Notes under the pieces: generated by a model
Database searches by the model: none
Told to the model about the DNA's origin: nothing
Seen by the model: the letters and a program-made list of their open reading frames with translations, nothing else
Position numbers and translations under genes: made by a program
IMG/VR virus record: IMGVR_UViG_3300025015_000006
Source: a virus
DNA length: 39,945 nt
Reading direction: 5' to 3' (one strand)
Part shown: positions 4,050-39,945 of the stretch, piece by piece
Numbering within the stretch: the first letter of the stretch is position 1
How the letters are laid out: each line of letters begins with the position of its first letter

Positions 4050-5099
4050 ATGACATTTGATACATATATTACTTCTATCACCAATCATGAAATTGTTCCA
4101 AAAGTGGTAGATAATATTTTAAATTCTAACGTCTTAGCTTTAAGATTTCTTGGAAATGCTAAGCCGTGGAATGGTGAGACTTTAAGGTTTCCTATTAAAT
4201 ACCAAAAATCTACTTCAGGTGGTTCTTTTTCGGGACTCGACACATTTTCAACTGCCAAAGTCAATACAAGACAAACATTGTCTTTTGACCCAAGAGGCTA
4301 CTATCATTCAGTAGTTTTGTCAGGAATGGAAGTTGATGTCAACGCAACCCCAGCTGGAGTTTTGAATTTAGTTAAGGTAGAAATGGAATCAACCCAACAG
4401 GATATGATTGACTCTATCGGAACTTTATTCTATGGAGATGGTACTGGAAACAGCAACAAGGACTTTTTAGGACTTGATGCTATCGTGGACGACACGACCT
4501 CGGTTACAACCTATGGTGGATTGTCAAGAAGCACTTATACAATGTTGAAGGCGACACGCACAGCCAGTGGTGGAACTTTAACAACGGATTTAATGGGTGC
4601 TTTGTATGACAACTGCACACGAGGAGGCAAAAGACCAACTCTTATCGTAACAACTGAAGCTATTTGGACAATCTATGAAGCTCTGCTTCAACCGACAGTT
4701 CAAGCAAATTATAATGCTTCAGGTTATGCACAGGTTACAAGAACTGGCATTGCCAAAGACAGAGGAGCTTTGCAGGGTGAATTAGGTTTTGATGCACTTT
4801 TTTACAGAGGAGTTCCTTTGGTTCGGGATGAAAAGTGCACGGCTCAGACTCTTTGGATGTTAAATGAAGAATATTTGCAATGGTATGGTTTGAAATCTCA
4901 TAAATATCAAACCGTTAGCCTTGCTTCTTCAAACATAGACGGAGTTTATGAAGATGCACCAAAGACAACTGGATTCTCTTGGAGTGGTCTAAAAGAACCA
5001 ACCAATCAGTATTCAGAAGTTGGCCAGTTTATTTTGGAGGGTAATTTAGTTTCTGCAGCTCCAAGATATCATGGAAGACTGACAGGTATCACAGGATAA
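4050..5099 (+). CDS. Major capsid protein
   Basis: 349 aa. Strong SD GGGGTGAAACAAA at 4037-4049. Follows the scaffold gene and is followed by an intrinsic terminator. Confidence 0.7.
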   Translation: MTFDTYITSITNHEIVPKVVDNILNSNVLALRFLGNAKPWNGETLRFPIKYQKSTSGGSFSGLDTFSTAKVNTRQTLSFDPRGYYHSVVLSGMEVDVNATPAGVLNLVKVEMESTQQDMIDSIGTLFYGDGTGNSNKDFLGLDAIVDDTTSVTTYGGLSRSTYTMLKATRTASGGTLTTDLMGALYDNCTRGGKRPTLIVTTEAIWTIYEALLQPTVQANYNASGYAQVTRTGIAKDRGALQGELGFDALFYRGVPLVRDEKCTAQTLWMLNEEYLQWYGLKSHKYQTVSLASSNIDGVYEDAPKTTGFSWSGLKEPTNQYSEVGQFILEGNLVSAAPRYHGRLTGITG

Positions 5100-23144: not shown

Positions 23145-23323
23145 TGGAAAAAGCTAAAAGAAAACAGATTGATATTGAATGGAACCAAAGAAAAGAAGCT
23201 AACCGTTTTCATAATTTAGCACTACTTGGTGTAAACCATATATCAAGAGAGACACTGGAGAAGTTGGTAAGGAGAAAAAGCTGGTTCGGGCAACCAAAAC
23301 CGCCAAAGATAAAATCTAAGTAG
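23144..23323 (+). CDS. Small basic hypothetical protein (59 aa)
   Basis: Hand-found ORF with a TAATG overlap onto the holin stop. Last gene of the rightward block. Confidence 0.4.
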   Translation: MEKAKRKQIDIEWNQRKEANRFHNLALLGVNHISRETLEKLVRRKSWFGQPKPPKIKSK

Positions 23324-23495
23324 AATAGTATTTAATAATAATATCAAGCCGCCTTCTATATTTATCTAAAATATCAAATCTTCGCCTAAGAAAAGCTATC
23401 TCACGACATATTCTATTACAGTATTTATTACGGCAGGGTTTTTGACATAGAAGACACTTATTTTTGAAATGAAAGAGTGGTTTTGTTAGTGGCAT
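23316..23495 (-). CDS. Small Cys-rich protein (59 aa)
   Basis: Hand-found: MPLTKPLFHFKNKCLLCQKPCRNKYCNRICREIAFLRRR... Converges on the + block and overlaps it by 8 nt. Confidence 0.35.
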   Translation of the reverse strand: MPLTKPLFHFKNKCLLCQKPCRNKYCNRICREIAFLRRRFDILDKYRRRLDIIIKYYST

Positions 23496-23582
23496 GTTTT
23501 TATCTCCAAATATTGCTAAAATTTTGTATTAAAAGTTTTATATCTCCAATTGAAAACTTTGTTGTCCCGTTAGCTTTTATTT

Positions 23583-24395
23583 TCAATAAAATTTTAATAA
23601 ATTTTTGTATTTCATAATTTCTCTATATTCATTTTGTTGAATTAAGACCATTTTAATATTAGGGAAATATATTCTCATTCTGTTTAATTTAGTTTTAGAT
23701 TTTTTATCCATCCATCCTTTTATTTCATGATATTCAAAAGTTCCATCATTATTAAAAACTTTAAAATCTGGACGATAACTTCTTGTTCCAAACTTTATCT
23801 TTTGGAAGATAAAAACATCTTTTTCAAATAACCAATCTTTAATAGAATTATTTTTCTTTAGAAAATCTAAATAGACAGCATAGTTTGCTTCCCATTTACT
23901 TCTAAAATATATATTTTTGTTTCCTATAAGATATTTTCCATTGAATACTTTTACGTGTCTGTTAGTACCATATCCTATTCTTATAGGAATTGGCATTCTA
24001 CCTACAAAAACATTAGCCATATCTTTTTTATATTTTTTATTTTTATTTTTACATATTAAAGAACAAAAACTACCAGCATTTTTATAATATTTATATTGAC
24101 TTGGGGCTATTGTTTTAATTTTTCCACATTCTTTACAATTATATTCAATTCTTTTTATTTTTCTTATATGACCTTTAGAAAAATAAATAATCAAACCCAT
24201 TCTTGATGCTTTTAAAAAACATTCTCTTGAACAAAAGCGAGAAGTATTTTTTCTAAAATTGTGACATAGATATGATTTCTTACATACTTCGCATATTTTT
24301 TTTACTTTCAAATCATTTCTTAAGCCAATTTCTTTCATCATTTTTCTTAACCTGTCTAATTCTTTTTCAGAACGTTTATAAAATCCTGTAGGCAT
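23583..24395 (-). CDS. PD-(D/E)XK-type nuclease with N-terminal Zn ribbons (homing-endonuclease-like)
   Basis: 270 aa. Contains FCSRECF and FCSLICK. The C-terminal FRSKWEANYAVYLDFL...YRPDFKV...YHEIKG matches a PD...E.K nuclease core. Confidence 0.5.
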   Translation of the reverse strand: MPTGFYKRSEKELDRLRKMMKEIGLRNDLKVKKICEVCKKSYLCHNFRKNTSRFCSRECFLKASRMGLIIYFSKGHIRKIKRIEYNCKECGKIKTIAPSQYKYYKNAGSFCSLICKNKNKKYKKDMANVFVGRMPIPIRIGYGTNRHVKVFNGKYLIGNKNIYFRSKWEANYAVYLDFLKKNNSIKDWLFEKDVFIFQKIKFGTRSYRPDFKVFNNDGTFEYHEIKGWMDKKSKTKLNRMRIYFPNIKMVLIQQNEYREIMKYKNLLKFY

Positions 24396-24398
24396 TTT

Positions 24399-24839
24399 TT
24401 AAGGTCTTAACTTTTTAAATACTTTTTTAGTTAATTCCTTATCATATTCTATAATAAAATGGCAAGAATTACAAGCTAAAATAACTTGATTAAATTCCCA
24501 TAATAGTTCTTTATTGTTTTTACCGAGATACCAATTTCTTTTATGTTTATGGGAAAAACCAAGAGCATTTGTTTTCCAACAATTCTTAAATCTTAATTCA
24601 CAAGATGTTATTCCTTTTTTTTGAAATTCTTTTTTTAATATTTCTCTTTCTTCTTTAATCAACTTACTTCTTGTCTTTTCCTTTGGCAACTTTACCTTTT
24701 TAACCTTAACCCCTTTAGATTTTGATTTTAGCTTGAGTAGTTTACGTGTTTTTATGTAGTCCTTCATTGTTTTTTTAGGTTTCTTAATGGGCTTGGGGAA
24801 CTTCATAAAAGTAAATGTTTTAGTTAGAACTTCGTCCAT
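24399..24839 (-). CDS. Putative HNH/NinG-like nuclease
   Basis: 146 aa. A Lys-rich N-terminus is followed by CELRFKNC...FSHKHKRNWY...NQVILACNSCH. Confidence 0.4.
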   Translation of the reverse strand: MDEVLTKTFTFMKFPKPIKKPKKTMKDYIKTRKLLKLKSKSKGVKVKKVKLPKEKTRSKLIKEEREILKKEFQKKGITSCELRFKNCWKTNALGFSHKHKRNWYLGKNNKELLWEFNQVILACNSCHFIIEYDKELTKKVFKKLRP

Positions 24840-24840
24840 A

Positions 24841-24978
24841 TCAGTTTACTATTCTTTTAACTTTCTTCTTCTTGGTGTTAATTCTATAAATAACTTTACC
24901 ACAATTCTCGCATGTTAGATAACCTATACTTTCTCTTAAGGGGTAACTACAAATCGGGCAAGGATTAGATATAATCAT
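24841..24978 (-). CDS. Zn-ribbon protein (45 aa)
   Basis: Hand-found: MIISNPCPICSYPLRESIGYLTCENCGKVIYRINTKKKK... Confidence 0.45.
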   Translation of the reverse strand: MIISNPCPICSYPLRESIGYLTCENCGKVIYRINTKKKKVKRIVN

Positions 24979-24984
24979 AATTAA

Positions 24985-25197
24985 ATAAGGCGGGGAGTTA
25001 AGTGTCTAAATCGCATCTGTGCCAATCTATAATTTAGAAATGTACTCCAGAGGTAGGATTTTACTCCATCTCTATCGTACTTTCACGGAACTCCCGTGTA
25101 TGTACTTTTATCCGCCCCAAGGAAAGCCCTAGAGCGGGAGATAAGACCCAGAGTCCTCAGTTCTGGTACTTGCTGAACTATCACAGATTATTCAGCG
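24985..25197 (-). ncRNA. ORF-free, GC-enriched structured region directly downstream of the tRNA-like gene; unclassified
   Basis: No ORF on either strand. Several helices are readable on the - strand: GCUGAA/UUCAGC, CCAGA/UCUGG, CACGG-GAGUU-CCGUG flanked by GUAC/GUAC, UCUAAAU/AUUUAGA, and long-range GGGAGUU/AACUCCC. Confidence 0.4.
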
Positions 25198-25329
25198 TGG
25201 TGGTAGCTGTACGACTTGAACGTACATTCCGCCATTCTTTTCTCGGTGACTTCGGATTAGCAACCTGTTGGTAAACTTTACACAACTGTCTTTTGGCGGG
25301 TATTTCCCTTGTTCACATACTAAACTACC
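25198..25329 (-). tRNA. Atypical tRNA-like gene, 132 nt, with encoded CCA and a 59-nt insert in place of the anticodon loop
   Basis: The - strand reads GGUAGUU-UA-GUAU(13-nt loop with GGG)AUAC-C-CGCCA...UGGCG-GAAU-GUACG-UUCAAGU-CGUAC-AGCUACC-A-CCA. TATAAT (rc of 25341-25346) lies 11 nt upstream. Confidence 0.55.
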
Positions 25330-25404
25330 ATAAACCTCCAATTATATACCCTAACAAAACAAACAAACTTCCATAAATAATATATTTTAGTTTTTCTTTA
25401 AGTA

Positions 25405-25749
25405 TTAACATACTTTCTGACATTTCGGACAATAGGCGGTGTACCTTTTATTCGAAGGCACCTGCCACTTATGGCCAAATAAATAACTTTGTCTCTTTAG
25501 TTTACCAATTATTTCCTCCACCACTTTTCTCCTTGTTTTTTGGAGCAATAAATTAACAAATTTTATTAACTTTTTAACTTCATAAGTTCTCCAATCTTTA
25601 TTTTGTAGGTTCATTAAACCTAAAATTATTAAGTCTTCTTCCCAATCTAATTGGGGTTTCTCTTTGGATATTTCTTTCCCACAATTATTACAAAATCCAT
25701 AAGGGTGTCTTGCTATTTTCGGGTGTTTACATTTCTCTTTATTTTTCAT
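25405..25749 (-). CDS. Hypothetical protein with terminal CxxC pairs
   Basis: 114-aa ORF. FCNNCGK near the N-terminus and YCPKCQKVC at the C-terminus. Confidence 0.6.
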   Translation of the reverse strand: MKNKEKCKHPKIARHPYGFCNNCGKEISKEKPQLDWEEDLIILGLMNLQNKDWRTYEVKKLIKFVNLLLQKTRRKVVEEIIGKLKRQSYLFGHKWQVPSNKRYTAYCPKCQKVC

Positions 25750-26054
25750 TATTTCTTCTCTAAATTTTTAACATTATCTCTTAAAGTATTTCTTATGTGT
25801 TTAAATAATCTCCATTCTTCCATTGAGGTTTCACCCATTCTATTTTCAAGTTCGTCTATTTCTTTAATTATTAATTTTCTCTCCCCCTTCTGTCCTTCTT
25901 TGTAGGCACTATTTAAAGTTTTTCTAATATAATAATTCATCCAACCTTGAACACCAGCAATATAGAGTTTTCCTTTTACCAACTCCCACTTTCTAAAGAT
26001 GTAATTCATTTTCTTTTCAACCGCTTCACTCTGTAGTTTATTTAGGTTTACCAT
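25749..26054 (-). CDS. Hypothetical protein
   Basis: 101-aa ORF, abutting its neighbour. Confidence 0.6.
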   Translation of the reverse strand: MVNLNKLQSEAVEKKMNYIFRKWELVKGKLYIAGVQGWMNYYIRKTLNSAYKEGQKGERKLIIKEIDELENRMGETSMEEWRLFKHIRNTLRDNVKNLEKK

Positions 26055-26069
26055 ATTATTTCAGGGCGT

Positions 26070-26228
26070 TTATTTCTTAACAAATAATTGACAAGGTATA
26101 TCCAAACAATATTCGACGAGAAATAAAATATCTTTTTCACTATCTTTCTCACCTTGTGCTATAAAATCAATTTCTTTAATTACTCTTTCTTCTTCAGTCA
26201 GTTTTCTTCTTGATTCATTAGTGGTCAT
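26070..26228 (-). CDS. Small acidic hypothetical protein (52 aa)
   Basis: Hand-found: MTTNESRRKLTEEERVIKEIDF... SD AAAGAGGA upstream. Confidence 0.4.
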   Translation of the reverse strand: MTTNESRRKLTEEERVIKEIDFIAQGEKDSEKDILFLVEYCLDIPCQLFVKK

Positions 26229-26261
26229 ATCCTCTTTATAAACTTCTAATTCCCTATTGGT

Positions 26262-26453
26262 TTATTCACTTTGTTTTTCCCAAATTAGTAAATTAAGAAA
26301 ATTATCCAAACAACCAAGTAATATTTGACCCTGACAGTTAGAACAACCAACCGCATAACTTTTACACTTATCACGACCAACTCCCTTTTCAGCCATTTTA
26401 ATTACAGTTTTAACCGCTTTCATCTTTTTATCTATTGGTTTAGTGTTAGTCAT
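26262..26453 (-). CDS. Hypothetical protein (CSNCQG motif)
   Basis: 63-aa ORF in the leftward operon. Confidence 0.5.
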   Translation of the reverse strand: MTNTKPIDKKMKAVKTVIKMAEKGVGRDKCKSYAVGCSNCQGQILLGCLDNFLNLLIWEKQSE

Positions 26454-26623
26454 TTTGATTTATAACTTTTATCGGGAAACTTCCAATATAGTATTCGTTC
26501 CCACCATTTAAGAGGTGTTATTTCTATACTGTCCTGACCGACAGAACTCGCCCAAAACCAATCATTATTTATATGGCTTATCTGTTTCTTCTTTCCTTTA
26601 TCTATTGATTTAGAGTTTTTCAT
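26450..26623 (-). CDS. Small hypothetical protein (57 aa)
   Basis: Hand-found, with an ATGA overlap onto the next gene. MKNSKSIDKGKKKQISHINNDWFW... Confidence 0.4.
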   Translation of the reverse strand: MKNSKSIDKGKKKQISHINNDWFWASSVGQDSIEITPLKWWERILYWKFPDKSYKSK

Positions 26624-26640
26624 ACTTCTAATTCCCTACC

Positions 26641-26832
26641 CTAACTAATTTTTAATTCTATTGTTGCGTGTTTATCACAATCTTTTTCTGCATCACAACC
26701 TTTAAGAACTATCCCATTCTTTTTAGCTTCCTCAATAAACTTTCGTAGCATTTTTGTTTCTACATCATCGTCATCAGCCTCTAAATCTATAAAAGGAATT
26801 CCGTCATAGTCCAAATCAAATTTTATATTCAT
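26641..26832 (-). CDS. Small acidic hypothetical protein
   Basis: 63-aa ORF (DLEADDDDVETK). Confidence 0.5.
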   Translation of the reverse strand: MNIKFDLDYDGIPFIDLEADDDDVETKMLRKFIEEAKKNGIVLKGCDAEKDCDKHATIELKIS

Positions 26833-26992
26833 ACTTAAAATATTTTAATTTATAATTCCCTAACTAATTAAAGGGTTAAAAGCTGGGGTTTAGTGGGCAA
26901 TATCATGCTTCGCAACCTGATAACCTCTTCAGCACCTAATGTCCCAGCTTTCAATCCTCTAATTTTCAAAGTTCCCTACCCTTGTGAGGGGG

Positions 26993-27400
26993 TTATTTAT
27001 AATATTTTATATAATCTTTTCTTAATTGGGTTTTTGTGTATCTTGGTTTATTATTTTTTATGTATTCAATATCATTAAGTATTCCACAAATTTTACTAAC
27101 TCCATTTTGAAATAAATACTCAAAATCAGAACCCTTTTCTTTTTTCATTCCTAAATATAAATTATCTTGTAAAACTAACTTGTAGGCTAATTTATATGTT
27201 TCTTTTGGAACTCCATAAGTAAAATTACCAAAAGCATCTTTATCTTTACTTCCATGAAAACAACCAGCCCAATAAGTAGGATTGTGAGAATTATCAACTG
27301 TTTTTATAGGAACAATTTTTCTACCACATCTATCACAAACATTATTTACTTGGTCTATATGTTTTTGACATTGTTTTTTTGTAACTTGATACTTTTTCAT
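26993..27400 (-). CDS. Hypothetical protein (CDRCGRK Zn-binding motif)
   Basis: 135-aa ORF. Confidence 0.6.
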   Translation of the reverse strand: MKKYQVTKKQCQKHIDQVNNVCDRCGRKIVPIKTVDNSHNPTYWAGCFHGSKDKDAFGNFTYGVPKETYKLAYKLVLQDNLYLGMKKEKGSDFEYLFQNGVSKICGILNDIEYIKNNKPRYTKTQLRKDYIKYYK

Positions 27401-27404
27401 ATTA

Positions 27405-27599
27405 TTATGTTTGTTTATATAATTTCATAATCCTTTTTGCATTTTCAATTTCTTCTATTTTTCTTAATATCAAACCATAAGAACCATTAAGTAATTCGGT
27501 CGGAACTTCAAGATTTATATCACACAAGATAGATTTCTTGTGAACTTTAAAGAGGTTTCTATCTTTAACTCTAAATTTTATTGACCATTCATTTTTCAT
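27405..27599 (-). CDS. Hypothetical protein
   Basis: 64-aa ORF overlapping the upstream gene by 4 nt. Confidence 0.5.
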   Translation of the reverse strand: MKNEWSIKFRVKDRNLFKVHKKSILCDINLEVPTELLNGSYGLILRKIEEIENAKRIMKLYKQT

Positions 27600-27796
27600 A
27601 TTTTTATGTTTTGGGGGGGAACTTTTAACTTACTATAATCTTCAAACTTAAATACACCGCCTCCACAATAAGGACAAGGTGTATCGGATGTTTCTTTCTC
27701 GCATCTAAAACAAATCCTTTTAGACTGTTTTTCTTGGGGTAATAATAAAGTTCCTTTATTTTTATAAAAAGATTGTGTTTTATTATAAGTATTCAT
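27596..27796 (-). CDS. Zn-ribbon protein
   Basis: 66 aa. CFRCEKETSDTPCPYCGG. Confidence 0.55.
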   Translation of the reverse strand: MNTYNKTQSFYKNKGTLLLPQEKQSKRICFRCEKETSDTPCPYCGGGVFKFEDYSKLKVPPQNIKI

Positions 27797-27835
27797 ATTT
27801 ATAAATCCTCAATATTTTTATAACTTTTAACTTTC

Positions 27836-28030
27836 TCACCTATTTTTATTACCCATTGTTATTTTCATACCATTTTCAAAAGTATATTCTATCCACCCAT
27901 CTGTCGTTTTATACCAATTTTCAGAGGTAATAATTCCTACTATTTTTAATAATTTTCCTTGAAAAACAACATATTGTCCATCCAAACCGTTAATTATATC
28001 CATATAAATAAATAATTTATAAACCCTCAA
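27836..28030 (-). CDS. Hypothetical protein (the ATG at 28003 may be the true start)
   Basis: ORF track. The TTG start overlaps the upstream gene; an internal ATG gives MDIINGLDGQYVVF... Confidence 0.45.
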   Translation of the reverse strand: MRVYKLFIYMDIINGLDGQYVVFQGKLLKIVGIITSENWYKTTDGWIEYTFENGMKITMGNKNR

Positions 28031-28265
28031 TATTTTTTAATAGTTTTTTTCTAAATGATTTCCAATCTTCATGAGAAATAACCAATTCATAATTGCCTTC
28101 TTCCCAACTTCCTAACTTTTCTATTTTGTTTATTTCCTCCTTCATCTGTTGCTTAAAGAGGGAGAGAAGAGTATCAGCCCAAAATCCACATTGTCCTTCA
28201 AACAATTTTCCTTTGAAAACTCCATTACCTAATATCTCAATTATTTCTTCTCTTAAGTTCTTCAT
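28017..28265 (-). CDS. Hypothetical protein (MKNLREEI N-terminus)
   Basis: 82-aa ORF. It shares its first 8 codons and upstream bases with the next gene upstream. Confidence 0.55.
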   Translation of the reverse strand: MKNLREEIIEILGNGVFKGKLFEGQCGFWADTLLSLFKQQMKEEINKIEKLGSWEEGNYELVISHEDWKSFRKKLLKNIEGL

Positions 28266-28429
28266 AATTTGTGTTTTTCAAAAAGTTTTAATAATCTATT
28301 TATACTTTCTTTTGTTAATGTTCCTGAGTCAATTTCGCTAATATCTTTAACTGATTGGGCTTCTTGAAGCACGGTGCGAACTTTGAAAGTCAGTATCATA
28401 TTTTCTATTTCTTCTCTTAAGTTCTTCAT
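28262..28429 (-). CDS. Small hypothetical protein (55 aa, MKNLREEI N-terminus)
   Basis: Hand-found, with an ATGA overlap onto 28265. Its 5' end is a 28-nt exact repeat of the neighbour's 5' end. Confidence 0.45.
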   Translation of the reverse strand: MKNLREEIENMILTFKVRTVLQEAQSVKDISEIDSGTLTKESINRLLKLFEKHKL

Positions 28430-28435
28430 AATTAT

Positions 28436-28585
28436 TTATCCGAATAATAACTTACTCCATTTATAATAGAATTGAAATGCTTGTTTTTCTTTAGGGTTTA
28501 ATCGTTCGTAAAGGTTTTTTGCTCTTATAACGGGTCTATCACAAAGCAAAGTCATTTTCATTTTCCATTCATTTTGTTTCTTCAT
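28436..28585 (-). CDS. Small hypothetical protein (49 aa)
   Basis: Hand-found: MKKQNEWKMKMTLLCDRPVIRAKNLYERLNPKEKQ... Confidence 0.35.
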   Translation of the reverse strand: MKKQNEWKMKMTLLCDRPVIRAKNLYERLNPKEKQAFQFYYKWSKLLFG

Positions 28586-28588
28586 AAT

Positions 28589-28894
28589 TTATTTAGAATT
28601 TATAACTTTTACTAATTCATCTATTAACTGTTGGGGATAGCCTGAATATAATTGCTTACTTCTTTTATCAGTTGTAAAATATTTTGGAATTTCGTTTCCA
28701 ATATAAAGTATTCTATTTCTTAAAACTTCCTCTATTTGCTCCTCTATCCTTACTTTCTTTTCTTTAGGTTTTGGGGATTTATTTAACCATACTTCTGATT
28801 TCGTATGGATTGGACAATCAGTTTTCCAAAATCTTACCTTACCGTCAGACGCATATTTTATTTCACATTTACATTTCTTTTCTTTAGTCTTCAT
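28589..28894 (-). CDS. Hypothetical protein
   Basis: 101-aa ORF (CKCEIKY...DCPIH). Confidence 0.55.
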   Translation of the reverse strand: MKTKEKKCKCEIKYASDGKVRFWKTDCPIHTKSEVWLNKSPKPKEKKVRIEEQIEEVLRNRILYIGNEIPKYFTTDKRSKQLYSGYPQQLIDELVKVINSK

Positions 28895-28915
28895 ATTTGC
28901 TAAAACTAATAATGG

Positions 28916-29101
28916 TTATTTAATATCTTTCCATTTATGACCTTTAGAACATTCATATTCAGTTGTTGTATGGTTTGGGTCTTTATCATGTAAAATTCCG
29001 TCTTTATCATAATATTGTTGCCAACCCAATAAAGTTCTTGTTGACATTCCAATATAAATCTCTGACTTATCTCCTTTTTTTTGACATTCAGGACATTTCA
29101 T
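28916..29101 (-). CDS. Zn-ribbon protein
   Basis: 61 aa. MKCPECQKKG...YECSKGHKW. Confidence 0.55.
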   Translation of the reverse strand: MKCPECQKKGDKSEIYIGMSTRTLLGWQQYYDKDGILHDKDPNHTTTEYECSKGHKWKDIK

Positions 29102-29173
29102 ATTACGCTTTTGACCTCCATGAACTTATAAAAATTAATAATCCAATAGTTATGATAATGGTTAGTGCTTCTA

Positions 29174-29347
29174 TCATTTTAGTATTTTAAGTTTGGTAAC
29201 TTTTAACTTTCTTATTGGTGTTAGGTCAGGTAAATCTGTTGGTATCATCTGGAAACTCTTTAACCAACATTCTGTTCTATGCATTGCTACCCCATCGCAA
29301 TACTTACACTCACGAACTTCCTTTAATTCTTTTTTACTTAGCTTCAT
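29174..29347 (-). CDS. Small hypothetical protein (57 aa)
   Basis: Hand-found: MKLSKKELKEVRECKYCDGVAMHRTECW... Preceded by the TATAATACTGTATAAT motif. Confidence 0.4.
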   Translation of the reverse strand: MKLSKKELKEVRECKYCDGVAMHRTECWLKSFQMIPTDLPDLTPIRKLKVTKLKILK

Positions 29348-29401
29348 ACTTACTATTATACAGTATTATATACCTAAATGTTGTTGATATTATTATAGGA
29401 C

Positions 29402-29935
29402 TCATATAGGAACATCATCAGGATTTACTCTCTCTTCTATAGTTCTAGCCCCAATCCTTTTGTAAGGCTCTGTTCTAGTGTACCCCCTAGTGTCCTTAAC
29501 AATAACAATATCCATATCAATAACAATAACCTCATTACCTTTCTTGTTTTTAATAGTGGGAATGTAGTCTAGTTTAAGAGTGTGGAAGAAATAATTAAGG
29601 ATTTCTTGGGGTATAGCATTGAAATCTTTAAGGTAAGTTTCTAAAACATTAGTAACAGTTGAAAAATGATTATGTTCTGAAAAGTTATTAACAAACACCC
29701 AACCTTTATAGAAAGCATATTTATTGTCTTTTTGTAGTTTCTCTTTCATTATTGATAACTGTTCTATACTAGCCCCTAGACTAGAACAGATTATCACATC
29801 AGGTAATTCATATATACCGACCATATTAACCTTAGAATTAGTAAATAGATACAAGAAGAGTAATTTTTCCTCATTAGAAAGTCCTAGTATATAACCATCT
29901 TCCCAAAAATTAGAATTTATTTTTCGGTATTTCAT
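29402..29935 (-). CDS. Replisome-organizer / replication-initiator-like protein (putative)
   Basis: 177 aa. The N-terminus INSNFWEDGYILGLSNEEKLLFLYLFTNSKVNMVGIYEL resembles phage replisome organizer N-domains; this is from memory. Confidence 0.35.
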   Translation of the reverse strand: MKYRKINSNFWEDGYILGLSNEEKLLFLYLFTNSKVNMVGIYELPDVIICSSLGASIEQLSIMKEKLQKDNKYAFYKGWVFVNNFSEHNHFSTVTNVLETYLKDFNAIPQEILNYFFHTLKLDYIPTIKNKKGNEVIVIDMDIVIVKDTRGYTRTEPYKRIGARTIEERVNPDDVPI

Positions 29936-29955
29936 TAATTTAATTTAATATAAAC

Positions 29956-30228
29956 TTATAGATTATTTTTTCTCATCTCATCTTCTCTTACCCATAAAGC
30001 TAAATCATCAATTTCTAATCCAAACTCTAGATAAGCGTCCAATAATTCTTCATAATGTTGTTTGTCTGTATTTTCAAGCGAGAATTTTTTATCAAATTGA
30101 GTTATACGCCAAGATAATTTTTGAATATCACGAAGAACATTACGAAGTTTTTCTAAATATTTATACTTGTCTATATCGGAAGTTAACTTTTTGAAAGCGT
30201 CTTTTTGGTAGTCTAAATTTGTCGCCAT
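29956..30228 (-). CDS. Hypothetical protein
   Basis: 90-aa ORF. Confidence 0.55.
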   Translation of the reverse strand: MATNLDYQKDAFKKLTSDIDKYKYLEKLRNVLRDIQKLSWRITQFDKKFSLENTDKQHYEELLDAYLEFGLEIDDLALWVREDEMRKNNL

Positions 30229-30345
30229 ATTGAATTTAATTTAATTTATTACTATAGTCGTTCCTCAAACTTAGGGACAAGCTGAAATCAATGAAATCTA
30301 CTTAGCCCCTAAATTTCAATCCCGATATATTATCCTACTCTTTGT

Positions 30346-30711
30346 TTATATTTTTGTCAAATCCATTTGTTTAGGCTTGTTAAGATTTTTCCAAGCCTCT
30401 AACATAGCTAATTTACCGTCCATAGTTGCTTCTTTTGGTACTTCTTTCATTGGCTCCCACTTATAATCCCATAGATAATACTTCTGCCCTGCTTTAATAT
30501 TCTTACCGTCATATTTAGCTGTTTGTACATAGGGAGATATTCTATATGGAGTCTTGCTATTTATTCTCATTTTCTGTCCTCGCATAGCATAAGGAACCAA
30601 ATCCCCGTCTAATGTTATTTCAACCACCTCATGTCTTTTATTAGCCAACTCCATAACAAAAGACCTTACAGACGCAAACCCGTTATAATATTTCTCACAG
30701 GTGTAAATCAT
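30346..30711 (-). CDS. Hypothetical protein
   Basis: 121-aa ORF, overlapping the exonuclease gene end. Confidence 0.55.
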   Translation of the reverse strand: MIYTCEKYYNGFASVRSFVMELANKRHEVVEITLDGDLVPYAMRGQKMRINSKTPYRISPYVQTAKYDGKNIKAGQKYYLWDYKWEPMKEVPKEATMDGKLAMLEAWKNLNKPKQMDLTKI

Positions 30712-31399
30712 TTAAAAACTTTCTCCATTCCTTAACCTTTTCATAAACCTCATCAATCGCTTTTTGGTCAAACTCAAAATCAAATATCTTAACCCTCTTT
30801 TCTTCTGGTATATCTCCAAACTTCATGTTCTTAATAATCTCCTGTTCCTTTTCCTTGTATTCGGCACTCTCTGGGTCGTGTTGGAATGAAAACCTGTACA
30901 GTTCATCTCTTATAAAGCTATCAGGAGTATCCACAAGACAATAGGCAATATGCCCACTCTTAGCCCCAACAAGCGCCATATAACCCAAGAGCTGGTAGTA
31001 GTAGGTCTTTTTAGCTTTATCAAAATCAGATTGAACGTATGAGAGCAAATCCCAACTTGTCTTTATATCCCAAATAGCCGTATCCCTAATATCGGGAGTA
31101 CCAGTAATGTAGTCATTCTTTAATAACTCTGTATTTTTAACAAAACTACTCGCCAATTTCTTATTTAACAAATCAATACTATCCTGTTCACAGATAATCC
31201 CTTTCTCTGTAAACTTTGTAGTTACATCACGGGCTCTGCCATACTCACTCTCTATCCAAATCTTGGTAAGCTCTGTCTTACAGGTTTCAGATAACTCTCC
31301 CTTAACTCTACTCTTTGTGGTCAATAAAGGGAGCATTGAGCAATGAAACAAATATTTATCGTATTTCATATTAGTTTGTTTTCTTTTTCCATTCCTCAT
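30695..31399 (-). CDS. YqaJ/lambda-exonuclease-like PD-(D/E)XK recombination exonuclease
   Basis: 234 aa. ITGTPDIRDTAIWDIKTSWD (D...D-x-K) and YYYQLLGYMAL. Confidence 0.55.
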   Translation of the reverse strand: MRNGKRKQTNMKYDKYLFHCSMLPLLTTKSRVKGELSETCKTELTKIWIESEYGRARDVTTKFTEKGIICEQDSIDLLNKKLASSFVKNTELLKNDYITGTPDIRDTAIWDIKTSWDLLSYVQSDFDKAKKTYYYQLLGYMALVGAKSGHIAYCLVDTPDSFIRDELYRFSFQHDPESAEYKEKEQEIIKNMKFGDIPEEKRVKIFDFEFDQKAIDEVYEKVKEWRKFLNDLHL

Positions 31400-31577
31400 T
31401 ATCTAAGGTTAATGGTGTTTTATAATTTATCTTACAATTTTCACATCTCATAAATCCGCTTAACATTTCTTTATATTCTTTTTTTAGATATTTAACTGTT
31501 CTATCTTTTACAAGCGGAAATCCGCATTTAGGACAAAAACTAACATTCATATTAGAAATTAGGATTATCCGCTTCAA
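31371..31577 (-). CDS. Zn-ribbon protein
   Basis: 68 aa. CPKCGF...CENCK. Confidence 0.5.
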   Translation of the reverse strand: MKRIILISNMNVSFCPKCGFPLVKDRTVKYLKKEYKEMLSGFMRCENCKINYKTPLTLDNEEWKKKTN

Positions 31578-31989
31578 ATGCTGTAACGGTTTTACTTGCG
31601 TTCCATTTAGCTTTTTGTACTTTAGCGTCCTCTAAGTTTTTACCCCAAGCTATAAAATCACAGCCAGAGCTTGTCTTAGTTGTAAAATCATACTTGCTAT
31701 TCTCACACTTACACATATCTTTACCAGTTTTAGTTACCATATGATATAAGCGACCACTATCTTTAGGGCAAATATCTCCTGTGTACTCTTTTTCTTTCTT
31801 TGGAAACCCACCACCAAATGACTTAACCTGTGGCTTAAACCCAACCTCGGTAAAATGTTTATCAACCGCCACAACCAAGCTAACTAAATCCTTAGTAGCT
31901 TTAATATCACCCTCTCTAATTGTAAACAGTACGTTAAACCCACCAAGCGTGGTCATACTGAAAGTTGCGGAATTTTTTGGTTCTTCCAT
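31552..31989 (-). CDS. Hypothetical protein, possible recombination partner (the track start 32019 is probably too far upstream)
   Basis: ATG at 31989 (MEEPKNSATF...) lies just after the stop of the upstream gene at 31991. It has a Cys cluster and is adjacent to the exonuclease. Confidence 0.5.
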   Translation of the reverse strand: MEEPKNSATFSMTTLGGFNVLFTIREGDIKATKDLVSLVVAVDKHFTEVGFKPQVKSFGGGFPKKEKEYTGDICPKDSGRLYHMVTKTGKDMCKCENSKYDFTTKTSSGCDFIAWGKNLEDAKVQKAKWNASKTVTAFEADNPNF

Positions 31990-31990
31990 A

Positions 31991-32332
31991 TTATTTATCA
32001 AATTTATTTTTAATAGCATTTATAATTTCTTCCATTCTATCTCTATAAAAATCTTCAAATGTTCCTTTTTTTCCTCTTTGTTCCCAAAGTATAAAAAGAA
32101 CAGAGCGAAGTCTTTGACTTTGTGTTTTCTGTGATATTTCACTCTTAACTTCGTGTGGAGGCTCTTTGGTTGTTAGTGGGTCAAAAAGAGTTTCGCACTC
32201 AATTCCTTGTAATCTCATAAATTCGGCACTTTCCTCAACTGTTAATTCTGGCGTTGAAATACTGAGTCCAAGAGAATGGTCGACCTTACTTCTAATTGAA
32301 GTTATTATAGTTTTTAGATGAATAGCTTTCAT
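31991..32332 (-). CDS. Hypothetical protein
   Basis: 113-aa ORF. Confidence 0.55.
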   Translation of the reverse strand: MKAIHLKTIITSIRSKVDHSLGLSISTPELTVEESAEFMRLQGIECETLFDPLTTKEPPHEVKSEISQKTQSQRLRSVLFILWEQRGKKGTFEDFYRDRMEEIINAIKNKFDK

Positions 32333-32337
32333 AACTA

Positions 32338-32502
32338 TTATTTATTTAAAACTTTTAATTTTTTCAACTCTTTCTCAATTTTATATTTTGAGAGTATTCC
32401 ATAAACATAGCTTGAATAAGTACCCAATTCTTTTGTTATTTCAATCGGTGTCTTTCCCGCCTCTGTCATCTCTATTATTTTTGATTTCAAAGATTGTTTC
32501 AT
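32338..32502 (-). CDS. Small HTH DNA-binding protein (54 aa)
   Basis: Hand-found: MKQSLKSKIIEMTEAGKTPIEITKELGTYSSYVYGILSKYK, a resolvase/Hin-type HTH pattern. Confidence 0.5.
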   Translation of the reverse strand: MKQSLKSKIIEMTEAGKTPIEITKELGTYSSYVYGILSKYKIEKELKKLKVLNK

Positions 32503-32547
32503 TTCTTTTTTTATTTATTAACTTTTAATTATATAAAGTATACAGTA

Positions 32548-32772
32548 TTATACTGATAATTTCAACTCGTTATACAGCTCAACTAAACCCTTAATAGCGT
32601 TCAATATCTTTTCCCGTATATTTCCCGCAAGGGGGCTTGACAGCTTGACAAACTTACTCTTGCCTGTTAGCCTTAAAGTGTTCTTTTCTTTTTCTCTTTT
32701 TCTTTTGTTTAGGTAATCATCATCAATACATAAATACAATACACCATTTAATAATAAATAAGGATATTTCAT
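32548..32772 (-). CDS. Hypothetical protein
   Basis: 74-aa ORF. Confidence 0.5.
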   Translation of the reverse strand: MKYPYLLLNGVLYLCIDDDYLNKRKREKEKNTLRLTGKSKFVKLSSPLAGNIREKILNAIKGLVELYNELKLSV

Positions 32773-33398
32773 AGATTTTCATAACTTATAGAATAATTAC
32801 ACATTGGTTGTCTTATACCTGTATTCCATAGGCACAAAGCTTCATTCAAATTCTTATCAGGGTTCATCTTAGAAAGCCAAAACTCGGCACGTTCAACAGC
32901 TTTCGTAAAGCTTTCATAACAAATCACTTGCCCCTCGTTCATTACCCCAAACCCTCCCCAACCCTTATTATTTAATCTACAACCGTCAGCCTTTCCCCAA
33001 GTACTTTCAAGTCCGTATATCTTCCATAATATCGCCCCATGTTTTTGGGCTAAAATTTGTTCTTTTTCGGTTAAAGGTACAGGGATAGCTTGACTTAGTA
33101 CAACAGGGCTTTTAACCCTATCAGACGCCTGTATTTTCACGCTTTTAGCTCTTTTCTCTATCCTTACAGGGGCTTGTAATTTAATGATAATCGGGAATTG
33201 AAACAAAACCCTGTTCTCGTCATACCAACGGCTTACGTTCATAAAAGCCAAAAACATACCAATAACAAACAACCCAACACCAAGAGCTACCGCATAAACT
33301 TTCAATCTCTTTATAAACTTTTTCCCTTTTCTCTCTATTTCTCCCGCTTTCTTTTCTACTTTCTTTGTTAAAAAGTTATTCATATGTTCTCCTTTCAT
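32769..33398 (-). CDS. Membrane-anchored lytic-transglycosylase-like protein (putative)
   Basis: 209 aa with an N-terminal TM (VYAVALGVGLFVIGMFLAF). The catalytic-looking segment is ILWKIYGLESTWGKADGC...GWGGFGV. Confidence 0.35.
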   Translation of the reverse strand: MKGEHMNNFLTKKVEKKAGEIERKGKKFIKRLKVYAVALGVGLFVIGMFLAFMNVSRWYDENRVLFQFPIIIKLQAPVRIEKRAKSVKIQASDRVKSPVVLSQAIPVPLTEKEQILAQKHGAILWKIYGLESTWGKADGCRLNNKGWGGFGVMNEGQVICYESFTKAVERAEFWLSKMNPDKNLNEALCLWNTGIRQPMCNYSISYENL

Positions 33399-33400
33399 AA

Positions 33401-37731: not shown

Positions 37732-39945
37732 ATGGATAATAAGGAATTCACCAAAGAAGAGTTAACAAAAATAATCTACGAGGCTCAATCAGTTAATCCT
37801 TTGGTCTGGATTTACGCTAACAAAATGAAGAGTGAGAGGGCAATTCCCATCTCTTTCAAGAGGCATAAATACCTTATAGAGCCTTTTTGTGATATGTCTC
37901 CCCGCCAGGTTTACCAGAAATCAGCCCAGATGGGTCTCTCAATCATGATGATTCTAAAAACCTTTTGGATGGCGAAGTTTAGAAACATGAATATTATCTA
38001 CACGCTCCCAACAGTAGAGGACGTTAGGAAGTTTGTACCTTCCAAAGTCAATCCAATCGTAAACAATAATTCCCAGATTTACAAATGGGTTAAGGACAAA
38101 GACTCCATAGAAACCAAGAAAGTCGGGGACTCGTTTATCTTCTACAAGGGAACTTTCACCAGCAAAGAGGCGATTATGTTGTCTTCCGATTTAAACGTTT
38201 ATGATGAGGTAGACCGAAGCGACTTGTCAACGATTGACATTTACTCCTCAAGGGTCAAATTTTCTCCCTATCACGGCGAGTGGTTCCTTTCCAATCCTTC
38301 AGCCCCAACGGCTGGAGTAGGAGCAAAATTCACCCTCTCAACCCAGAACCATTGGTTTATAAAACCCTCCTGTGGACATTACCAGTACATGGATTGGGAT
38401 AATAATGTGGACAAAGCCAATGGCCGCTACATCTGTTTCAGGTGCGGAAAGAAAATAGAGAATTACGACAGGACTCATGGCGAATGGGTCGCTAAATACC
38501 CCAGTCGGGAGATGAAAGGGTACTGGATTAACCAGATGATGGCCGAGTGGATAGATGTTAAAAATCTGATTTTGGAGGAGGAGGATAAAAACAAGGCCTA
38601 CTTCTATAATTTTGTTTTAGGCAAACCTTACATGGGCAGTGACACCATCATTGATGCCTCCCTTATCTTAAAAAACGTGGTTGAAACTCCAAACTCCCAA
38701 ACCAACTGTATTATGGGGGTTGACCAAGGGTTGAAAAAACATTATGTTTTGGGAAATAAGGAGGGAATTTTCCAAGTAGGGAGCACTAAGGAGTGGGACG
38801 ATATTGAGAACCTGAGAAATAAATTTGATGCGGTACTTATCATGGATGCCCTTCCCGACTTGACCGTTCCCCGCCAGTTGAGGGAAAAATATCCTCACAA
38901 AGTCCACCTCTGTTACTACCACAAAGACAAGGACAGGGCGGTAGATACCAAGTGGGGCGAGAACAAGGACTGGGGTTATGTCTGGGCTGACCGAAACCGA
39001 ACTTTACAGACGGTTATAGATTGGCTAGCTTCGGGAAAGATTAAATTCCAGATGAAACCTTATGATTTAGAAGAATTTGTAAAACACTGGTCAACTATGT
39101 ATAAATTGGTGGAGGAGGATTTCCTGGGAGTGCCCAAATTTATCTGGGAGTCAACGGGAAAAGACCATTTTTGTTTAGTTGGTGAAACTTTAATTGAAAC
39201 TTCAAAGGGAGAAATACTTATCAAGAAAGTAAAAGTTGGGGATATGGTTTTAACAAGAAAAGGATATAGGAAAGTTCTTCGTTCTTGGATGACAAGGAAG
39301 AACGCAAAGGTAATGAAAGTTAATTTCTCAAATAGAAAATCTCTTATTGGAACTCCCGACCATAAAATCTGGATTAAAGATAAAGGTTTCGTTGACTTAC
39401 ATTCTACGAACTATGGTGATATAATAGAAACATGCAAGAAGCAATCATATTCAAAGGTATTACTTATAGGAGGTATCCTGATTCTCCTAATCGTTCTGAT
39501 AGGGTGTATTTTAATTCAAATGGTACTGAACATTATAAAGGTAGGAAAAGACTTCATCAGGAAATTTGGATGTCTATTCATGGAAAATTTCCAAAAGGTT
39601 GTGCAATACACCATAAAGACGGTAACTCGCTTAACAATGATATTTCCAATCTTGAATGTATCTCAAGAAGTCTCCATATGTCCCAACATGCAAAAGAAAG
39701 TTTCAAAAATCCACAACGGAGAAAACAAAATAAAGAACATCTTAAAAAAATCAATAAATTATCACATATATGGAGAAGAACACCAGAAGGAAAAGCGTGG
39801 CATTCTAAACATGCTTTTAATTCCATTGTTCTTAAAGTTCCAAAAAAATTCAACTGTATTGAATGTAATAAACCATCTCAAACAATTTCTCGGTCAGGTG
39901 GAAAATACTGTTCCCCCAGATGTAACCATCGTTTCCAAGCAAGAG
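37732..39945 (+). CDS. terL: Terminase large subunit, intein-containing. It runs off the window end and continues at 128..388; the full CDS is 825 codons including stop, about 539 aa after splicing
   Basis: ATG at 37732, with the frame open to the window end by hand translation. Walker A-like QKSAQMGLS, Walker B LNVYDEVD, a Zn ribbon CGHY..CFRCG, and a C-terminal nuclease-type motif GKDHF interrupted by CLVGETLI. It sits directly after terS and before the portal gene. Confidence 0.85.
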   Translation, partial: MDNKEFTKEELTKIIYEAQSVNPLVWIYANKMKSERAIPISFKRHKYLIEPFCDMSPRQVYQKSAQMGLSIMMILKTFWMAKFRNMNIIYTLPTVEDVRKFVPSKVNPIVNNNSQIYKWVKDKDSIETKKVGDSFIFYKGTFTSKEAIMLSSDLNVYDEVDRSDLSTIDIYSSRVKFSPYHGEWFLSNPSAPTAGVGAKFTLSTQNHWFIKPSCGHYQYMDWDNNVDKANGRYICFRCGKKIENYDRTHGEWVAKYPSREMKGYWINQMMAEWIDVKNLILEEEDKNKAYFYNFVLGKPYMGSDTIIDASLILKNVVETPNSQTNCIMGVDQGLKKHYVLGNKEGIFQVGSTKEWDDIENLRNKFDAVLIMDALPDLTVPRQLREKYPHKVHLCYYHKDKDRAVDTKWGENKDWGYVWADRNRTLQTVIDWLASGKIKFQMKPYDLEEFVKHWSTMYKLVEEDFLGVPKFIWESTGKDHFCLVGETLIETSKGEILIKKVKVGDMVLTRKGYRKVLRSWMTRKNAKVMKVNFSNRKSLIGTPDHKIWIKDKGFVDLHSTNYGDIIETCKKQSYSKVLLIGGILILLIVLIGCILIQMVLNIIKVGKDFIRKFGCLFMENFQKVVQYTIKTVTRLTMIFPILNVSQEVSICPNMQKKVSKIHNGENKIKNILKKSINYHIYGEEHQKEKRGILNMLLIPLFLKFQKNSTVLNVINHLKQFLGQVENTVPPDVTIVSKQE
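39432..39945 (+). CDS. HNH homing endonuclease, 183 aa, in a different frame from TerL and the intein; continues to the stop at 163-165 after wrap-around
   Basis: ATG at 39432, preceded by an in-frame TGA at 39417. Hand translation gives RLHQEIWMSIHGKFPKGCAIHHKDGNSLNNDISNLECISRSLHMSQH, then a C-terminal KYCSPRCNHRFQARVWRRR. No stops in between. Confidence 0.8.
   Translation, partial: MQEAIIFKGITYRRYPDSPNRSDRVYFNSNGTEHYKGRKRLHQEIWMSIHGKFPKGCAIHHKDGNSLNNDISNLECISRSLHMSQHAKESFKNPQRRKQNKEHLKKINKLSHIWRRTPEGKAWHSKHAFNSIVLKVPKKFNCIECNKPSQTISRSGGKYCSPRCNHRFQAR
39819..39945. repeat. Second copy of the 127-bp terminal overlap
   Basis: Identical to 1..127. Implies a unit genome of 39,818 bp. Confidence 0.95.

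Follow-up and report, generated by a model that had tools for sequence, protein, structure and literature searches.

A candidate non-decoding tRNA-like RNA with a folded module in place of the anticodon loop in a groundwater phage

Besides true tRNAs, the known phage-encoded RNAs include a few transfer-messenger RNAs (tmRNAs) and Y-RNA-like mimics. YrlA is a noncoding RNA whose T and D arms mimic the tRNA elbow, and some YrlA RNAs are phage encoded. Phage T4 makes the stable RNA species 1 and 2 (RNA C/D), which are about 140 nt long, have tRNA-like termini, and are processed together with tRNAs; their function is still unknown. To our knowledge, no described natural phage RNA combines a complete tRNA body and an encoded CCA with a folded module in the position of the anticodon loop. 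A candidate for such an RNA is encoded on the minus strand of the IMG/VR virus record IMGVR_UViG_3300025015_000006, a 39,945-nt stretch of DNA referred to below as the window. It consists of a 132-nt tRNA-like body with a 59-nt insert, followed by a structured tract of about 210 nt.

Work with an engineered tRNA scaffold in bacteria has shown that cellular factors still recognize and precisely process a molecule that retains the acceptor, T, and D arms but has a foreign RNA in place of the anticodon stem-loop (PMC3753655). In the tRNA-miRNA-encoded RNAs (TMERs) of murine gammaherpesvirus 68 (MHV68), tRNase Z splits the transcript at the 3' end of the tRNA (PMC4838037). In plant mitochondrial t-elements, tRNA-like folds direct RNase P/Z cleavage and thereby set the ends of neighboring RNAs (PMC1920247). 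The phage locus is best described as an early-region gene for a non-decoding tRNA-like RNA, in which the insert would rely on the tRNA body as its chassis for processing and stability and the 3' tract would be cotranscribed. We give this description about an even chance of being correct.

The tRNA-like body, its insert, and the 3' tract

The original prediction, made from the DNA sequence alone, had listed the parts of a tRNA-like gene with an encoded CCA, and all of them could be read again on the minus strand (Table 1). In addition to the stems, the body contains U8-A9, a 13-nt D loop that includes GGG, and 3 or 4 unpaired nucleotides between the anticodon-type stem and the T stem. A pair-by-pair script check found all 36 proposed pairs of the cloverleaf to be standard ones. 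The minimum free energy (MFE) fold of the isolated 135-nt segment is the cloverleaf, with the insert folded as two hairpins; the folding z-score of the tRNA-like part alone is −1.66. When the 59-nt insert is swapped in silico for a 7-nt loop, ARAGORN at its default settings calls an 80-nt tRNA, indicating that the scaffold is tRNA grade and aberrant in the anticodon region only. A reduced motif, defined as a 5-bp T stem with a TTCRANY loop, an abutting 7-bp acceptor, and NCCA, occurs once in the window, versus 2/300 in dinucleotide shuffles of the whole window. The features of an RNase P substrate are also readable, namely, a 12-bp acceptor/T stack (7 plus 5 bp), UUCAAGU, GG in the D loop, RCCA, and U at position −1.

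The segment that takes the place of the anticodon loop is exactly 59 nt long, as had been claimed, and the two hairpins proposed for it have pair probabilities of 0.87 to 0.99 in the full-length ensemble. A-rich joining strands lie on either side of these hairpins. The bases adjacent to the stem read AAAGAC... and ...AAGAA, confirming that no U33-type loop abuts it. Because these junction bases are all A or G, no splitting or joining of the insert yields a loop with U33, and the combination of U33, a purine at position 37, and a 5-bp stem that makes a canonical 7-nt anticodon loop is absent. With the anticodon loop replaced by the two-hairpin module, the body cannot read codons.

This RNA could not be placed in a known class. 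ARAGORN at default settings calls no genes in the window, which contains no true tRNA genes; its intron, tmRNA, and mitochondrial modes return nothing, and relaxed thresholds give only implausible calls. Rfam has no hits at the gathering threshold over the whole window. At an E value of ≤10, applied here and below to positions 24800 to 25500, its sole match is a weak tRNA (RF00005; 16.9 bits versus the gathering threshold of 29). The match uses the internal GGUUGCU as an alternative 5' acceptor strand, which forms 6 of 7 pairs and comes with no credible D or anticodon arm, and it was judged coincidental. A decoding tRNA was rejected, given the ARAGORN result, the subthreshold Rfam score, and the missing canonical anticodon loop.

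Other classes were rejected on specific features. For tmRNA, pair 3:70 is U-A and not G·U, there is no tag frame, and the ARAGORN -m output is empty even at an 80% threshold; for a permuted tmRNA, the second acceptor 5' strand is not present downstream. The bacterial Y RNA YrlA was rejected because the ends of the phage RNA form an acceptor stem with a free ACCA and an Rfam match is absent. The idea of a hammerhead ribozyme (CUGAGGA plus GAAA) was dropped, as CUGAGGA (at about 25160) lies in a hairpin loop and not between stems I and II. Rfam at an E value of ≤10 shows no hammerhead, twister, pistol, or hatchet ribozyme and no riboswitch or leader family. T-box-like pairing of ACCA with UGGU in the 3' tract was rejected, since the motif is absent.

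The TATAAT reported 11 nt upstream of the RNA is indeed present, and the base before G1 is U. Its promoter status fared less well: there is no convincing −35 element, and the sigma-70 scan, which requires a −35 match, did not flag it. That the promoter evidence consists of nothing more than the −10 hexamer had been missed in the original prediction. The promoter scan lists a weak promoter-like site farther upstream (Table 1). An imperfect 13-nt direct repeat, TTTATGG(A/T)AGTTT, is located at 25365 to 25377 and 25323 to 25335 (minus strand), with a TATAT(T/A)A-type hexamer before each copy; it may have arisen when the promoter and the 5' acceptor region were partly duplicated.

The description of the tract that follows the CCA as free of open reading frames (ORFs), GC rich, and structured also holds. 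It contains no sense-strand ORF of more than 49 amino acids (aa). The GC content is 0.44 to 0.49 over positions 25000 to 25300, versus 0.17 to 0.31 in the flanking early genes, and the 350-nt stretch from 24985 to 25335 stands out as the principal GC island among the early genes. Folding is about three standard deviations better than in shuffles, with z-scores of −3.13 (356 nt) and −3.08 (219 nt on the 3' side). Helix probabilities in the ensemble range from 0.73 to 0.99 in the tract, and RNAalifold was run on three alleles. The MFE fold of the tract adds a long-range helix, GGGAGUU/AACUCCC, in which 3 of the 7 pairs are broken in the allele of contig L013. The pairing of hairpin D is kept in both alleles, at a cost of 2.8 to 5.6 kcal/mol. 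No intrinsic minus-strand terminator was found between the tract and the next ORF, so that read-through into this ORF is expected. The tetranucleotide GTAC occurs in 6 copies in 357 nt (24979 to 25335), compared with 84 copies in the 39.9-kb genome, where about 132 would be expected from base composition. GTAC is depleted across the genome and clustered in the RNA; GUAC is self-complementary, and at least 4 of the 6 copies lie in predicted stems.

Strain-level variation and the search for homologues

The element is a hotspot of strain-level variation, which the original prediction had also missed. Thirteen contigs of this phage, recovered from several samples and assemblies of the Rifle area, were compared, and most are identical to the window over the element. 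In contig L013, all 13 differences found over 1,207 aligned nt fall between 25262 and 25087. In contig L008, the only 3 differences over 1,936 nt, at 25223, 25217, and 25171, are all shared with L013. In both contigs, the neighboring ORFs match those of the window exactly, synonymous sites included. A total of 13 changes in 176 nt, against none in about 1,000 flanking nt, is incompatible with neutral drift of dead sequence. This island looks like the outcome of recombination between diverged alleles, or of selection on the RNA, and the concentration of variation in the RNA would fit a role in phage-host conflict.

Three of the changes fall in stems. One converts A-U to G·U in the T stem, and two convert G-C to G·U in hairpin D, whose 5-nt loop is rewritten. 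In the T loop, A57 is replaced by G57, each of which is canonical. The sole strain change in the insert, U to C at 25262, hits the one unpaired position of hairpin 2. The G·U pairs can form only in the minus-strand transcript, and the same changes would produce mismatches in a transcript of the opposite strand; this speaks for an RNA transcribed from the minus strand. Contig L012 diverges in its upstream flank, just 5' of about 25375 and immediately upstream of the promoter, indicating that the RNA together with its promoter region acts as one module that has a separate left boundary. Several assemblies break in or beside the element, as expected of a polymorphic spot.

On available data, the element is an orphan, and its relatives are near-identical strains of one Rifle phage population with a genome of about 39.8 kb. 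The searches relied on DNA similarity, exact and degenerate patterns, neighboring proteins, a covariance model, and six-frame translation, and they covered INPHARED, IMG/VR, Joint Genome Institute (JGI) metagenomes, GTDB genomes, and contigs of a large protein collection. No homologue was found in INPHARED phages by blastn or, beyond near-identical strains, in IMG/VR via the M23 protein, the exact T-arm pattern, or the exonuclease protein. The element is absent from the fetched stretches of contigs L014 to L022, which encode M23 homologues with 44 to 86% identity, and from those representing the contexts of NinG/HNH homologues and 49 JGI loci; it was not found in 80 IMG/VR DUF1064 loci. The closest relative has protein identities of 82% (DUF1064) and 73% (NinG-like), and its contig stops just short of the position of the RNA. 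A covariance model of the tRNA-like domain (R1), run over the fetched loci, gave a self match of 170 bits, ordinary phage tRNAs at ≤21 bits, and nothing else. Comparison of the six-frame translation of the region with 5.8 billion proteins, for spurious ORF calls over homologues, revealed no relative. With no homologue outside one phage population, a covariation alignment could not be built.

The pattern formed by the T arm and the acceptor 3' strand produced 24 scattered chance hits, none of them a tRNA, in 185,579 species with one representative genome each. None of the 24 hits came from the candidate phyla radiation, and the true host genome may lie outside that collection. Among the contigs with M23 homologues, L022 displays a sharp GC peak at 76 to 225 of the locus (0.55 to 0.59 versus 0.34 overall), just upstream of the gene for an M23 lysin with 86% identity. 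The peak sits under a called 96-aa ORF, the gene order downstream of the lysin differs, and a copy of the RNA is absent there.

Genomic setting

The termini of the window carry an exact 127-nt direct repeat (1 to 127 and 39819 to 39945) of the same size as the assembler k-mer of the k127 source contig, which indicates that the window is a circularly closed, complete phage genome of about 39.8 kb. The phage comes from Rifle aquifer groundwater metagenomes (European Nucleotide Archive ERZ909588; contig k127_254486, 39,936 bp). A Candidatus Daviesbacteria genome has a homologue of the M23 lysin on one of its contigs (396 kb), making a host from the candidate phyla radiation likely, albeit not proven.

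The GC content is 36% for the whole genome, about 40 to 45% for the plus-strand late structural genes, and about 22 to 31% for the leftward early genes. The Shine-Dalgarno (SD) sites attributed to this phage in the original prediction are a property of its late genes, which have GGGGGTGA-type ribosome-binding sites, with strong ones at 4050, 5245, 6342, and 7168; most of the leftward early genes (23300 to 33400) have A/T-rich upstream regions with no SD sequence. At least one early gene, the ORF ending at 29347, has a TATAAT about 7 nt ahead of its ATG. The combination of early genes with no SD sequence and a TATAAT close to the ATG suggests leaderless mRNAs or mRNAs with very short leaders. 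A 160-nt gap between two early ORFs, at 26833 to 26992 (minus strand), contains a long imperfect hairpin of about 110 nt, AGAGGAUUGAAAGCUGGG...CCCAGCUUUUAACCCUUU, with an MFE of −44.7 kcal/mol, a z-score of −2.70, and a local GC peak. This hairpin is possibly a second structured RNA or a regulatory element.

The genes downstream of the RNA encode a zinc-ribbon protein, a NinG/HNH-like protein, and a protein resembling Holliday junction resolvases (Table 1). Upstream are a 114-aa zinc-finger-like ORF and, at a distance of 4 to 6 kb, genes for a DnaD-like loader and an exonuclease. The 146-aa NinG/HNH-like protein has a single named relative, which carries PF05766. The protein encoded here has an extra lysine-rich N-terminal region of about 50 aa; shorter homologues (L047 to L049 and L051) are encoded immediately ahead of the large terminase in certain phages and beside RusA in others. 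In one contig of the same phage (L002), a G-to-T change at the equivalent of window position 24497, within an otherwise identical 2.8 kb, leaves the called NinG/HNH-like gene with 114 instead of 146 aa. Genes of RNA biology, such as those for a reverse transcriptase, an RNA ligase, or a Ro-like protein, are absent from the neighborhood; an rsr gene was not noticed in the window, whose ORFs were not all screened for one.

Table 1. Features of the tRNA-like RNA locus and its surroundings, in window coordinates
Feature	Position	Strand	Details
Weak promoter-like site	25408-25379	-	TTAATA-18-TATATT; promoter scan
−10-like hexamer	25341..25346	-	TATAAT, 11 nt ahead of G1; sequence
tRNA-like RNA	25198..25329	-	132 nt; read from sequence, pairs checked by script
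Acceptor stem	25329-25323 / 25208-25202	-	GGUAGUU/AGCUACC, 7 bp, one U·G
D arm	25320-25300	-	Stem GUAU/AUAC, 25320-25317 / 25303-25300, 4 bp
Anticodon-type stem	25299-25294 / 25234-25229	-	CCGCCA/UGGCGG, 6 bp
Insert	25235..25293	-	59 nt, Y-shaped module between strands of the anticodon-type stem
Insert hairpin 1	25286-25267	-	GUUG.GUAA/UUACCAAC
Insert hairpin 2	25265-25245	-	GGU.GCU, loop AAUCCGA, AGU.ACC
T arm	25225-25209	-	5-bp stem GUACG/CGUAC, loop UUCAAGU
Discriminator A	25201	-	
Encoded CCA	25200-25198	-	
Structured tract	24985..25197	-	About 210 nt, ORF free; directly 3' of CCA
Hairpin HA	25196-25172	-	Robust in ensemble
Hairpin HB	25166-25148	-	Robust in ensemble
Hairpin HC	25137-25112	-	11 bp; robust in ensemble
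Hairpin D	25098-25084	-	Alternative hairpin
Hairpin HE	25074-25048	-	Robust in ensemble
Hairpin HF	25038-25005	-	Robust in ensemble
Strain-variation island	25087..25262	-	Ungapped comparison, L013 and L008
Zinc-ribbon ORF	24841..24978	-	45 aa, CxxC...CxxC; directly after tract, without SD; uncalled in public contigs
NinG/HNH-like ORF	24399-24839	-	146 aa
DUF1064 ORF	23583-24395	-	270 aa, Holliday junction resolvase-like

Competing explanations and comparison with known systems

If the locus is a gene for a non-decoding tRNA-like RNA, transcription would proceed leftward from the −10-type promoter a few bases upstream, and the transcript would form an L-shaped tRNA body with its acceptor stem, T arm, and D arm. 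Established substrate rules predict that host RNase P would cut at U(−1)/G1 (25330/25329) and that the encoded ACCA would set the 3' end or shield it. By analogy with engineered scaffolds in E. coli, the body would display the two-hairpin module, giving this payload precise ends and stability. The tract of about 210 nt would either become a separate RNA after a cut at the 3' end of the tRNA, as in the TMERs, or stay as the leader of the zinc-ribbon, NinG-like, and resolvase genes, by analogy with the t-elements.

The roles proposed from the beginning, a decoy or scaffold or a co-transcript of a tRNA and a noncoding RNA released by RNase P/Z, are plausible. Given the missing anticodon loop, the RNA is unlikely to be a decoy for anticodon nucleases; it could possibly act as a sponge for factors recognizing the acceptor or the elbow. 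A further proposal, offered here tentatively, is a natural tRNA-chassis effector RNA. Such an RNA would hijack the host tRNA machinery (RNase P, 3' maturation, possibly modification, and the CCA end), and its non-decoding payload, the two-hairpin module and perhaps also the adjoining 210-nt RNA, would bind or sponge a host factor, e.g., a defense enzyme that recognizes the acceptor or elbow; the allelic divergence would then be the footprint of an arms race.

Several observations weigh against a tRNA-like RNA of this kind. The acceptor and D stems are not favored in the full-length thermodynamic fold. Position 14 is G instead of A and the D loop is long (13 nt), which makes the tertiary fold uncertain. 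The restriction of the element to one phage population means that true compensatory covariation is lacking; RNAalifold shows 0 double-sided changes, which makes the evidence from the strain changes weak. The promoter is represented by a −10 hexamer alone, and the insert has no detected target within the phage genome, where antisense matches of the RNA are chance-level 9- to 12-mers. The predicted fold of the 3' tract is ambiguous, with the long-range MFE helix competing with hairpin D, and the stable hairpin 2 nt past the CCA could impede exonucleolytic 3' trimming.

Among the alternatives, a mainly cis-acting leader would use the tRNA-like fold as an RNase P/Z signal or a 5' stabilizer of the downstream mRNA and the tract as a regulatory 5' untranslated region. 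It would account for the missing terminator before the next ORF, which begins right after the tract without an SD sequence, and t-elements give a precedent for tRNA-like folds that set mRNA ends (PMC1920247). However, a processing signal requires neither an elaborated 59-nt insert nor an encoded CCA, most early genes of this phage also lack SD sequences yet manage without such leaders, and no riboswitch or leader family matches. A leader as the principal function is therefore unlikely; it overlaps with a non-decoding tRNA-like RNA and does not exclude it.

The locus might also be a decaying tRNA pseudogene or a tRNA disrupted by an insertion and devoid of function, with the GC island reflecting a foreign origin; as an unexpressed relic, it would be a mere curiosity. 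In favor of a relic, no homologues were found, the element varies more between strains than do its flanks, and position 14 and the D loop are noncanonical. Decay is nevertheless rather unlikely: all 36 pairs are intact, the three stem substitutions keep pairing, the distribution of strain changes is inconsistent with neutral drift, the insert itself forms two high-probability hairpins, and the element is identical in most contigs from several Rifle-area samples and assemblies.

An intron-containing functional tRNA, whose 59-nt insert would be excised completely or in part, is improbable. Its best case combines the tRNA-grade scaffold with the heptamer UUGCUAA (25263 to 25257), a perfect YU-NNN-RN match that could serve, for example, as a Ser-GCU anticodon loop. 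This heptamer is poorly flanked, with only 3 of 5 or 4 of 7 bases pairable, and would need two introns located exactly at 31/32 and 38/39; ARAGORN finds it at relaxed thresholds only, and the relaxed hits have poor stems and other acceptor strands, whereas the intron mode at default is empty. A group I intron, already considered too large in the original prediction, would take at least about 200 nt for its P3-P9 core, and Rfam at an E value of ≤10 shows no Intron_gpI. An archaeal or eukaryotic endonuclease-type intron, likewise doubted there, was rejected because ARAGORN -i output is empty, no joining of the insert ends yields U33, and no splice motif was found: a bulge-helix-bulge (3-nt bulge, 4-bp helix, 3-nt bulge) cannot be drawn at 25294/25293 and 25235/25234, and the GACA after the 5' bulge has no UGUC partner.

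Finally, a DNA-level element (origin, packaging site, or attP) with an incidental tRNA-like look or a host tRNA relic could draw on the GTAC cluster and on the location in the replication and recombination region but is very improbable, as GUAC is self-complementary and mostly accommodated in predicted stems, no iterons were found, the strain changes keep RNA pairing through G·U on the minus strand only, and an attP-type tRNA fragment, for which the original prediction had seen no integrase, matches neither a tRNA with this 3' half in the species representatives nor an integrase-sized ORF in the early region.

If the RNA is expressed and processed, it would be a tractable candidate for RNA-based takeover or counterdefense in phages of poorly understood groundwater bacteria, and its strain differences make it a natural place to look for phage-host conflict. 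It belongs with the non-decoding tRNA-like RNAs and is not categorically new, although by their defining tests it falls outside the scaffold-, TMER-, tmRNA-, and Y-RNA-like families. Like tmRNA, it has an acceptor/T-arm domain that ends in ACCA with a discriminator A, and its anticodon arm is replaced by other RNA. Unlike tmRNA, it has U3-A70 instead of G3·U70, no tag frame, no pseudoknot ring, a replacement of 59 nt, and an intact D stem. In YrlA, in contrast, the Ro-binding stem is built from the two ends of the RNA, a loop caps the acceptor-like stem, and there is no CCA end. The T4 species 1 and 2, compared here by description only, sit in a cluster of true tRNA genes, whereas the window has none. 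The t-elements and MALAT1 mascRNA use a tRNA-like fold as an RNase P/Z cleavage signal, as is proposed for the phage RNA; they are eukaryotic or organellar, consist of minimal tRNA-like parts, and have no elaborated domain on the anticodon side.

In function, the phage RNA comes nearest to a tRNA scaffold, a cotranscript of the TMER type, or a strongly reduced mimic of tmRNA or Y RNA. The MHV68 TMERs (PMC4838037) are viral transcripts of 200 to 250 nt that begin with a non-decoding tRNA-like element and continue into structured hairpins. They differ from the phage RNA in depending on eukaryotic RNA polymerase III and giving rise to Dicer-dependent miRNAs, in having no large anticodon insert and no encoded CCA, and in showing no sequence relationship to it; an expressed and processed phage RNA would provide a bacterial-virus parallel to these herpesvirus tRNA-linked noncoding RNAs. 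The engineered tRNA scaffolds of Ponchon and Dardel (PMC3753655) similarly keep three arms and carry a stem-closed structured insert in place of the anticodon stem-loop. Those scaffolds are man-made and stabilize a chimera, whereas here the arrangement is found in a natural phage genome, with a two-hairpin payload and a 3' structured tract. Should the phage RNA be expressed and processed as predicted, the tRNA scaffold trick of RNA engineers would also occur in nature. If it also acts as the tRNA-chassis effector proposed above, no earlier natural counterpart of the engineered scaffold would be on record from bacteria or phages, and the RNA would represent a new class of phage counterdefense or takeover RNAs, in a phage whose hosts are probably bacteria of the candidate phyla radiation.

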